A stretch of 63,042 bases of DNA, filler included, from Globobulimina sp. (Eukaryota), in the NCBI GenBank assembly GCA_003354225.1. It is 22 parts of 22 records of this genome, joined end to end, with 100 filler letters (N's around TTAATTAATTAA, not from the genome) between each part and the next. Parts side by side here need not be neighbours in the genome. Positions count along the whole stretch, not along the records: positions 1 to 2,772 come from PIVH01004951.1; 21 more parts are not named here. One strand, given 5' to 3'. Positions within the stretch are counted from its first letter, which is position 1. The number at the start of each line of letters is the position of its first letter. Below are positions 3-1,853 of this stretch, piece by piece. The position numbers and the translations under genes are program-made. The notes under the pieces were generated by a model that saw only the letters and a list, made by a program, of their open reading frames with translations, ran no database searches and was not told where the DNA came from.

Positions 3-1853
3 AAAGAGGCGCAGATTGCGGTGAAATATGTGAAGCGGTTTATCATTGGTTTGAAGAATGCCGGCAAGGAGAGCCACATCGCCGTCATCTCCGATTATAG
101 GGCGCAGATCGAAGAAACCCGGAAATTGCTGCATGCGGTGCCCGGCATAAAGGCCGACGACATCTTATTGTGCACAATCAATGAAATCGAAGGCAGCTCC
201 AAACCGATAGTGATTTATATGTGTTGCCGGTCAAACAATACGGGCAATATCGGCTTTTTGCGCGAGACCAACAGAGCCAATGTGGCGTTAAGTCGCGCCG
301 AATATGCGCAGATTGTGATTGGTGATCCAAATACGTTGCAATACAACCCAGTGTACAACAAAATATTTGCGTATCACCGAGAAAAAGGAGCGGTGGTTTG
401 CGAGAATGCGGACTATAATCCGTGGGATAATAATAATAGTAATTGGATCAAGCAAATTCGAGTCCACTTCCCGTTGGTTAACCTGTCGAAGCACGCCGAG
501 AGAATCCAGAGGAATGACTACCATGTTTGCTCCGGCTGCGGCAAGATCGAGTTAGAGAAACTATTTTGTGGCCGCAGCTGCAGCAATGTCGATTTGTGCG
601 CCAAGTGTATGAACAAATATTTATCCAAATACTGCCGCGCGAAAAAGAAATTGCGTTTGGATGGCTGTTCGCGCGTCATTCCAATCACAAATGTCGAGAA
701 ATCTGAGTTTTGTGCGGCCGATTCGAATGGCATTTCGCTGGAATTTGATATTCTTTTAGGTCGGTATTTGAATGAAAATGGCCTAATTCAACATATTCGA
801 CAGGACGAGCTATCAAATAAGTTATGGAGTGTTGCCAGGAGACTCTGTGGCGACATCTGGGCCAAACATCAAAAATATGTACCGGCCTGTTTTCGCACTT
901 TGGTGGGCAGCAAGAAAATGGACGAAAGCTGCAGCGAAACCAGCAAAGCATTGGGGATCATGCGGTGTAAAAGGAGCCATTTGCTGCAACAGAGTATTAT
1001 GGACACGCGCTTTTTTCAGATTGTGAACAAAATCAGATATAATAACGAGGCATTGAAGGAATATTATAAACATAACAGGAATACGTTTTATTTGCATCGA
1101 GAGTTTGAGCAATATCAACCAACCACGATTGTGGTGGCCTATTTGCAGTGTTGTGGGTATTCGCAAATTGTTTCCAATCGATTGCGGACTCGAATTGCTC
1201 GCGAATTGTTTGAGCGAAATAAAGAGAATCCGGGCAAATTTGAGAAACGATCAGTAATCCCGATGGATAAAAGAACAATTAATAGATTGGCGTACGAGTT
1301 GCAATCGAATGGAATCAGAAATGTCTTATCCAAATGCAATATGTGTGTAAACAGCAGGAATGTGCAGAAATGGTGTGTTTATATCATCGAATTGATGCAA
1401 AGGGCCGTGATTGTCGACACTGTGGGTCCGTATTACCAACATTTGACGCATGAAAATGCGATAACTGCGGAAGTCAGTTTTGGTGACAAATTGGCGCAAG
1501 CGGGCTTTGACTACATTGCAGAGAAGGAATTGAAGGAAAGAGGCTTCCCCGTGACGCCCGATTATTATTTGAAGAAATCGTGGATTATAAATTACAACGG
1601 CAAGAGCACTGAAGTGAATTGGTTGGATTTCAAAAACAATTATTGTTCCGCGACAGAATGGAACATTGACAAATTGAATTGCCAGGCCATTAAATATAAT
1701 CTGCGATTTGGTCCGGGTGCCTTCATATTTTCGTTGGGATTTGTTAGGCCGCCACAAGGATTGCAACTAAATTGCTATGGTTTGCTGGCTGCAGTGCCGC
1801 TCTCCAAAGGTGGCGTTGCGGGCTTTATTGAAAAAAGAATCAAAAATAAATAA
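3..1853 (+). CDS. 5'-partial SF1B (Upf1/DNA2/NAM7-like) helicase C-terminal domain + ZZ-type zinc finger + C-terminal TPD (CDIN1/C15orf41-like) PD-(D/E)xK nuclease
   Basis: Frame is open from position 3 (KEAQIAV). Helicase motifs AVISDYRAQ, TINEIEG, RSN..IGFL, RANVALSRA, IVIGD. ZZ-like HVCSGC..CGRSC.NVDLCAKC. TPD domain E..L.ERG..TPD..WLDFK..QAIKY..RFGPG.IF..GF. Confidence 0.8.
   Translation, partial: KEAQIAVKYVKRFIIGLKNAGKESHIAVISDYRAQIEETRKLLHAVPGIKADDILLCTINEIEGSSKPIVIYMCCRSNNTGNIGFLRETNRANVALSRAEYAQIVIGDPNTLQYNPVYNKIFAYHREKGAVVCENADYNPWDNNNSNWIKQIRVHFPLVNLSKHAERIQRNDYHVCSGCGKIELEKLFCGRSCSNVDLCAKCMNKYLSKYCRAKKKLRLDGCSRVIPITNVEKSEFCAADSNGISLEFDILLGRYLNENGLIQHIRQDELSNKLWSVARRLCGDIWAKHQKYVPACFRTLVGSKKMDESCSETSKALGIMRCKRSHLLQQSIMDTRFFQIVNKIRYNNEALKEYYKHNRNTFYLHREFEQYQPTTIVVAYLQCCGYSQIVSNRLRTRIARELFERNKENPGKFEKRSVIPMDKRTINRLAYELQSNGIRNVLSKCNMCVNSRNVQKWCVYIIELMQRAVIVDTVGPYYQHLTHENAITAEVSFGDKLAQAGFDYIAEKELKERGFPVTPDYYLKKSWIINYNGKSTEVNWLDFKNNYCSATEWNIDKLNCQAIKYNLRFGPGAFIFSLGFVRPPQGLQLNCYGLLAAVPLSKGGVAGFIEKRIKNK

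Follow-up and report, generated by a model that had tools for sequence, protein, structure and literature searches.

A foraminiferan gene family joining a UPF1-like helicase to a CDIN1-type nuclease as a candidate RNA-degrading enzyme

The fusion gene and its domains

The analysed stretch of Globobulimina DNA (63,042 nucleotides, referred to as the window) is composed of 22 unrelated contigs of about 2.77 kb each, ordered by length and joined by N spacers of the form N44-TTAATTAATTAA-N44, which are located at positions 2773-2872 and in 20 more places. Since neighbouring contigs are unrelated, open reading frames running across these spacers are artefacts, and only positions 1-2772, corresponding to contig C4951 of the fragmented assembly G000 (70 Mb in 48,370 contigs), provide context for the gene described here. 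Its 3' part, encompassing 616 codons and a stop, occupies positions 3-1853 of the plus strand and constitutes the 3' third of a large gene. The single open frame proposed in the first-pass annotation is thus present, encoding 616 residues, and it contains no start codon, its 5' end being lost at the start of the contig. The frame had also been described as richer in GC than its flank, which holds for the values themselves (43.6% compared to 27.5% in the 3' flank), but the contrast is ordinary, since 2 of 19 other long reading frames in the window, selected by hand, show 44-45% and the excess thus reflects the usual difference between coding and non-coding sequence. Behind the gene, and not part of it, a search of the assembly has defined a dispersed non-coding repeat at positions 2216-2531 of the plus strand (repeat A), for which 238 candidates were found and 40 scored, in either orientation relative to neighbouring genes. 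This repeat begins sharply with TAGGGAT, which we take to recall the ends of hAT transposons, and it is probably a non-autonomous element.

The gene was compared to sequencing runs over positions 1-2200. In run X1, possibly the source of the assembly, two overlapping contigs cover positions 1-1879 with zero mismatches, and in run X5, which originates from another study, 30 of 30 bins are covered by contigs of which 199 of 211 show at least 99% identity, all of them short and none spanning the gene. Runs X7 and X8 contain a diverged version. Third codon positions account for 23 of the 37 coding differences among those listed in the related runs (p 0.0003), and 21 of the same 37 are synonymous. 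At position 484, run X5 contains an in-frame insertion of 6 bases in the linker, in an independent sample. No RNA dataset on record is listed as containing the stretch.

Positions 3-410 (plus strand) were assigned from Pfam, PDB and fold matches to a helicase of the UPF1-like SF1B group, of which they encode the C-terminal portion of RecA domain 2A. The second RecA domain recognized earlier is confirmed by a match to AAA_12 above the curated cut-off (residues 1-109, E 6.8e-21), by best PDB sequence matches to UPF1/Nam7, and by fold Z-scores of 14-16 for the helicase part against Sen1, Upf1, IGHMBP2 and Senataxin. The earlier reading of its motifs was likewise correct, with motif VI, RANVALSRA, being intact (residues 91-99, positions 273-299, plus strand) and motif V being altered to CTINEIEGSS (residues 57-66, positions 171-200, plus strand). 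The IEGSS of the latter is common to all six fusion-family sequences that were tabulated, where UPF1 has FQGRE.

The C-terminal domain at positions 1419-1745 (plus strand) is a CDIN1/TPD nuclease of the PD-(D/E)xK type, as supported by Pfam, its catalytic residues and a structural model. The likeness to CDIN1 that had been noted by eye is reflected in a match to TPD (PF14811) at residues 473-581, with an E-value of 8.8e-15 and 55.2 bits compared to a cut-off of 27. Alignment to TPD proteins defines the catalytic residues E490 (1470-1472), D520 (1560-1562), D542 (1626-1628) and K544 (1632-1634), all on the plus strand, which together with Q561 and Y565 of the QxxxY motif are present, as had been claimed. 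In the human protein these correspond to E166, D196, E214, K216, Q232 and Y236, as mapped by motif and spacing instead of a direct alignment, with the numbering taken from the available part of PMC13463051. E490, D520 and Q561 are matched in all 62 aligned stand-alone TPD proteins, and for D542 and K544 the share is 90% or more among 81 aligned rows. A structure prediction had been suggested in the first-pass annotation, and the model of residues 240-616, folded apart, is confident (pLDDT 86.6, pTM 0.83) and places a restriction-endonuclease fold in the C-terminal domain. PD-(D/E)xK enzymes fill most of its top fold matches (best Z 7.2, rmsd 3.1, 111 aligned), the closest solved folds being FokI (Z 7.2) and BsaWI (Z 7.1), scores that are low and tied. 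Top matches among viral models include CDIN1/TPD proteins of mimivirus and megavirus (E ~1e-7), and the helical/nuclease model shows a TM of 0.57/0.69 to a viral protein of 303 residues. The full-length model of the window protein has a pTM of 0.50, and a contact between helicase and nuclease is thus not predicted.

Two elements are located between these domains. The first, at positions 528-608 (plus strand), is a Cys finger with C176/C179 and C199/C202 being invariant. It had been described as ZZ-like, which stands insofar as it is a Cys finger with two invariant CxxC pairs, but it comprises only half a ZZ and is devoid of the second zinc site: PF00569 does not match the whole window protein and reaches 14.9 bits on a piece of 52 residues, compared to a cut-off of 21.4. 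Across relatives the finger keeps only the first and last CxxC pairs and the closing His pair is absent, when judged against what we take to be the ZZ ligand pattern, with eight ligands and a closing His pair. In the model, the finger is not resolved (pLDDT below 50). The second element, at positions 720-1418 (plus strand), is an all-helical region, as defined by the model of residues 240-616 and by hhalign, whose alignment extends into the region at low column confidence. Its distal part probably corresponds to the N-domain of CDIN1. The proximal part, at about residues 240-335, is specific to the fusion family and gave no clear PDB match in a fold search. The linker region between helicase and nuclease is conserved in Bolivina.

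A conserved family and its full-length protein

The fusion of helicase and CDIN1 nuclease is genuine. Both are encoded in one frame in three sequences, comprising the window gene, a paralogue on contig C1669 of the same genome, with identical domain order and 49% identity over residues 2-616, and the metagenome protein P0008, which contains AAA_12 and TPD in 945 residues. With the region following the helicase as query, HMMER returned 379 matches among 1.84 billion representatives, and the best 150 of these matches include 11 members of the family. The other 139 among these best 150 have a median length of 275 residues, and a helicase domain was absent in the 16 of them that were scanned, including the 3 with more than 500 residues. 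A phmmer check for helicases on the 150 matches found only P0006 and missed P0008 and P0005, and was not relied on. Overlapping pieces of both paralogues are found in Bolivina argentea (P0155, P0006, P0180, P0003 and P0004), and further overlapping family pieces (P0153/P0005) in a Trinity-named set. All named members are from foraminifera (Bolivina argentea and Globobulimina turgida), with named records being few.

In a quick tree of 145 TPD domains, in which 12 of 157 sequences were left out as their TPD segment was too short, the seven TPD domains of the fusion family group together in a single clade (SH-aLRT 99), which splits into two paralogue subclades each containing a Bolivina member. 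The clade is located on a long branch (0.98) and the tree does not resolve its sister; a giant-virus origin of the nuclease was set aside, the TPD tree being unresolved on this point. The four stand-alone TPD proteins of the genome fall apart from the fusion clade. These are encoded by four further TPD genes over the cut-off, accompanied by one broken gene (L011, L013, L014, L015 and L016), several with long N-terminal extensions, and the grouping of the four in the tree points to a lineage-specific expansion of CDIN1. Another TPD fusion among the HMMER matches, P0089, combines TPD with KH domains and thus also points to RNA, and in P0040, a TPD protein of 524 residues, the N-terminus resembles, by eye only, a 2-oxoglutarate oxygenase.

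Other searches have not enlarged the family. A word-index search of the C-terminal half against proteins of 581-1850 residues found none among 7,998 candidates and is insensitive, having missed P0008. The ESM Atlas provided only leads below 0.9 similarity, the 338 pattern matches of a metagenome scan were reduced to 4 loci, all helicase-only, and viral contigs contain no match to the fusion, nor to P0014. No account of a CDIN1-helicase fusion was found in a literature search confined to papers outside subscription. The first-pass annotation had suspected an undescribed eukaryotic helicase-nuclease, which is supported by the recurrence of the fusion in a paralogue and in other organisms, by its intact catalytic residues and by the lack of a published description in our search. 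The fusion is thus conserved and apparently undescribed.

The part of the gene that precedes the window was approached through overlapping sequences. Runs X7 and X8 extend upstream of position 3 in helicase sequence reading SSMQQSKCNK, which matches Bolivina P0006 at this place. In P0009 of G. turgida, the sequence of contig C45798 is followed by the C-terminal 71 residues of the window protein, which ties this contig to the window gene, although the join skips most of the gene, shows no obvious splice signals and might depend on the assembly itself. It connects the region of motif Ib to the final 71 residues at an apparent microhomology of 6 bases, seen by eye in C45798 and near position 1626 of the window, and may be a deletion, a template switch or an artefact of the gene model. 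Contig C23747 was rejected as true 5' extension, as it contains an in-frame stop, lacks the QYR motif and carries an RCC1 gene upstream, with X7 and X8 continuing differently.

A further view is offered by P0155 (1,280 residues), the Bolivina orthologue of the paralogue on C1669, which is 68% identical to this paralogue and whose residues 1113-1246 are 62.5% identical to the helicase part of the window protein. Its N-terminal 640 residues match contigs C6273 (55%) and C7378 (32-39%) and contain a Cys4 finger and two YK[SN]xC..C..C.F.H repeats, a pattern conserved twice in three sequences. These repeats resemble CCCH fingers, with their Pfam matches staying under the cut-offs (best E 0.07 and 0.37). 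Contig C6273 goes with C1669, based on 95% DNA identity over 130 bp, which leaves C7378 for the window gene by elimination only; no contig was found to link the two. Pieced together from these overlapping sequences, none of which reaches from the N-terminus to the nuclease, the full protein would comprise about 1,800 residues.

In P0155, AAA_11 and AAA_12 are both over cut-off, and all helicase motifs are present, including Walker A (GPPATGKT), DE, motif III, QYR and motif VI. Contig C45798 contains motifs Ia to III. The first-pass annotation had proposed to recover Walker A and B upstream of the contig, of which Walker B, as part of DESNQ, is found in C45798, but the Walker A of neither paralogue was found in this assembly and is known only from P0155. 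A sequence of the form IHGxxPTNQG in C1669 and C45798 was initially taken as a decayed Walker A, suggestive of a dead helicase, a reading that was dropped, since P0155 contains the real Walker A upstream and identifies this sequence as motif Ia. The CH domain of UPF1 (PF09416) gave no match in P0155 or in the reading frames of C6273 and C7378; a true UPF1 with this domain is encoded on another contig of the genome.

Proposed function and competing explanations

We consider it probable, at roughly 60%, that the family encodes a host helicase-coupled RNA nuclease, a proposal that builds on the recognized domains. Two old paralogues of a foraminiferan host gene would each give rise to an RNA-degrading enzyme in which a Cys4 finger, two CCCH-like fingers, a UPF1-like 5'-to-3' helicase, a Cys finger with a single site and a CDIN1-type nuclease follow each other in this order. 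The N-terminal fingers would bind RNA, and the helicase would load on a single-stranded 5' stretch and open RNA duplexes or RNA:DNA hybrids, thereby freeing the 3' end of the other strand, from which the tethered CDIN1 domain would cut. The helicase would in this way feed the substrate, as Codanin-1 does for human CDIN1. As far as described in the accessible text of PMC6138625, UPF1-like helicases move in 5' to 3' direction, and that of PMC13463051 describes human CDIN1 as an RNA-only nuclease that cuts RNA in duplexes and in RNA:DNA hybrids, that requires a free 3' RNA end and that is aided by Codanin-1 as substrate feeder. When a 5'-to-3' motor enters a duplex, the 3' end of the other strand is released, which would suit a nuclease that depends on such an end. 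A search of the genome for Codanin-1 gave one match of 19 bits compared to a cut-off of 27, which in a fragmented assembly proves little. The likely role of the enzyme is in turnover or surveillance of structured RNA, and a function in defence is conceivable. The RNA specificity of the fusion is assumed from one human homologue, and motif V differs from that of UPF1 throughout the family.

It appears unlikely that the protein instead processes DNA, with a function resembling Dna2 in repair, replication or foraminiferan genome remodelling. UPF1-like helicases act on DNA as well as RNA, according to the available part of PMC11090510, and human CDIN1 binds DNA but, within the consulted text of PMC13463051, cut none of the DNA substrates tried. 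The fold relationship to the DNA restriction nucleases FokI and BsaWI would also point to DNA, but these scores are low and tied, the best helicase matches are to UPF1 and not to Dna2, and the N-terminal repeats resemble what we take to be RNA-binding CCCH fingers.

We regard it as decidedly unlikely that the helicase would serve as a weak or non-unwinding RNA clamp in a protein that is mainly an RNA-targeted nuclease scaffold. The IEGSS in motif V throughout the family would be compatible with such a role, as would the report, in the part of PMC6138625 seen by us, that the core of IGHMBP2 alone does not unwind. The Walker A of the window paralogue is unseen, and the copy on C1669 has lost the Walker A segment yet stays in frame, but this deletion is located on a rearranged, repeat-linked contig, and against the clamp stand the motifs retained in P0155, from Walker A to motif VI, and the DESNQ and motif III of C45798.

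Very unlikely in our view is an assignment of the gene to a mobile element or giant virus, to which it would belong or with which it would have arrived. Broken copies are scattered in the genome: C38918 carries a piece with a deletion and stops and C267 a broken piece at the 3' tip of the gene, and others are found on C4222 and C23747. The pieces of the window gene at positions 1540-1717 of L045 (C4222) and 1-130 of L009 (C23747) are joined to RCC1-repeat genes. The copy on C1669, which in frame lacks about 380 residues including Walker A, resides on a self-closing contig, which starts and finishes in an identical 119-base stretch, and lies beside a dispersed repeat (repeat B), which is also carried by C4222, and mimiviruses contain stand-alone TPD proteins. 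But Bolivina has both paralogue lineages in intact form as well, viral contigs yielded no relative, the sister of the fusion clade is not resolved, the GC content is within host range, and repeat B carries many unrelated host genes.

Repeat B is a conserved non-coding sequence of 350 bp (L017:115-475 on C1669, also in L038, L039, L041 and L043), which reaches about 1.5 kb with subfamily extensions and is present in all 40 scored contigs of 78 candidates; it is absent from the window and its motif has no match in viral contigs. Among repeat-B contigs larger than 3 kb, 5 of 11 are self-closing, compared to none of 20 evenly spaced repeat-free controls (p 0.003); these five are 3.4-4.8 kb long and all carry unrelated host-type coding sequence on the strand of the repeat. 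In 50 reading frames no transposase or Rep was found over Pfam cut-offs, with one sub-threshold match to a primase-helical domain. The fold of the repeat core (L017:200-410, minus strand) shows a long stem that closes around inner hairpins (z -2.3 compared to -1.5 for the other strand), and its variation mostly keeps pairs via G-U, with covariation no better than in shuffles (176/500). Its assignment to a known RNA was rejected, there being no Rfam match and no hammerhead core. The repeat-B contigs are possible gene-carrying DNA circles or a gene-capturing element, and the self-closing ones may be genuine circles, genes flanked by direct repeats, or products of amplification. The earlier suggestion of mobile-element cargo thus lacks support as regards the origin of the family, in light of the two old paralogues in Bolivina, the absence of a fusion in viral contigs and of an adjoining transposase, but it fits the broken or deleted copies of both paralogues beside the dispersed repeat. 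Terminal repeats, a transposase or Rep neighbour and a viral homologue of the fusion were not found, the 5' flank being outside the assembly. A dispersed element has thus taken up copies of this gene family, or the two have been assembled together, but the family itself predates this.

Finally, a chimera of two separate genes, one for a helicase and one for CDIN1, generated by amplification or assembly, a possibility raised in the first-pass annotation to which junctions with RCC1 genes in the fragmented assembly (C23747, C4222) might lend credit, can be dismissed for the helicase-nuclease join, as the same fusion recurs in the 49%-identical paralogue and in P0008, with the linker conserved in Bolivina and the gene covered, if in short contigs none of which spans it, by the independent run X5.

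Relation to known systems

The proposed host RNA nuclease would have implications for CDIN1, a gene linked to human anaemia. The RNA nuclease activity of CDIN1 became known only in 2026, and its natural substrate has yet to be established. As a natural fusion that combines CDIN1 with CCCH-like fingers and a UPF1-like helicase, the protein provides a clue that nucleases of the CDIN1 type may act jointly with RNA helicases in attacking structured RNA or hybrids, an idea that a single-chain enzyme would allow to be examined in the absence of Codanin-1. A poorly studied lineage further gains a candidate enzyme of RNA surveillance, in the context of a helicase-nuclease fusion being a known design, a family that looks narrow and a function deduced from its parts. 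With CDIN1/C15orf41 (PF14811), the protein shares the PD-(D/E)xK core with its E, the D of TPD, D/E-x-K and QxxxY, and the helical region in front, whereas human CDIN1 is a stand-alone protein of 281 residues with Codanin-1 as partner and the domain is here placed at the C-terminus of a helicase. With the UPF1-like SF1B helicases (UPF1, Sen1/Senataxin, IGHMBP2, MOV10 and ZNFX1) it has the AAA_11/AAA_12 core and the order of motifs in common. The best match is to UPF1, but the fusion helicase is only 26-29% identical to it, without CH domain and altered in motif V.

Dna2, likewise eukaryotic, has an SF1B helicase and a nuclease of the PD-(D/E)xK type within a single polypeptide. Its nuclease precedes the helicase in reverse order, contains an Fe-S cluster and acts on DNA, and its sequence matches the fusion helicase more weakly than UPF1. 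The same order as in the fusion, with a UPF1-like helicase followed by a C-terminal PD-(D/E)xK nuclease, is found in the bacterial CnuH-Vsr of type III-B CoCoNuT systems, as described in the part of PMC11090510 at hand, and in proteins combining AAA_12 with DUF2726, DUF559 or MTES_1575, which are Atlas neighbours at 0.84-0.88 and thus leads only. These bacterial proteins differ in nuclease family, prokaryotic operon context and the lack of CCCH-like and Cys fingers, and the likeness is probably convergent.

The closest functional analogue is HELZ2, which, as far as the available text of PMC10516660 describes, combines a 3' RNA nuclease with zinc fingers and helicase domains in a single protein, degrades structured RNA and has been suggested to counter viruses or mobile elements. 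It is tempting, although we consider it rather unlikely, to envisage an independent origin, in foraminifera, of a HELZ2-like enzyme of defence that was assembled from CCCH fingers, a UPF1-like motor and a CDIN1 nuclease. In this view, the built-in helicase would replace Codanin-1, and the enzyme would destroy structured RNA or RNA:DNA hybrids derived from viruses and mobile elements. DNA circles that carry genes and share a structured core would be at large in the same genome and would have captured copies of the fusion gene itself. HELZ2 contains an RNB nuclease and two helicase domains, whereas the fusion family contains a single helicase and a PD-(D/E)xK nuclease, with no match to an RNB domain and one helicase core in the family pieces scanned, and both thus constitute separate families.
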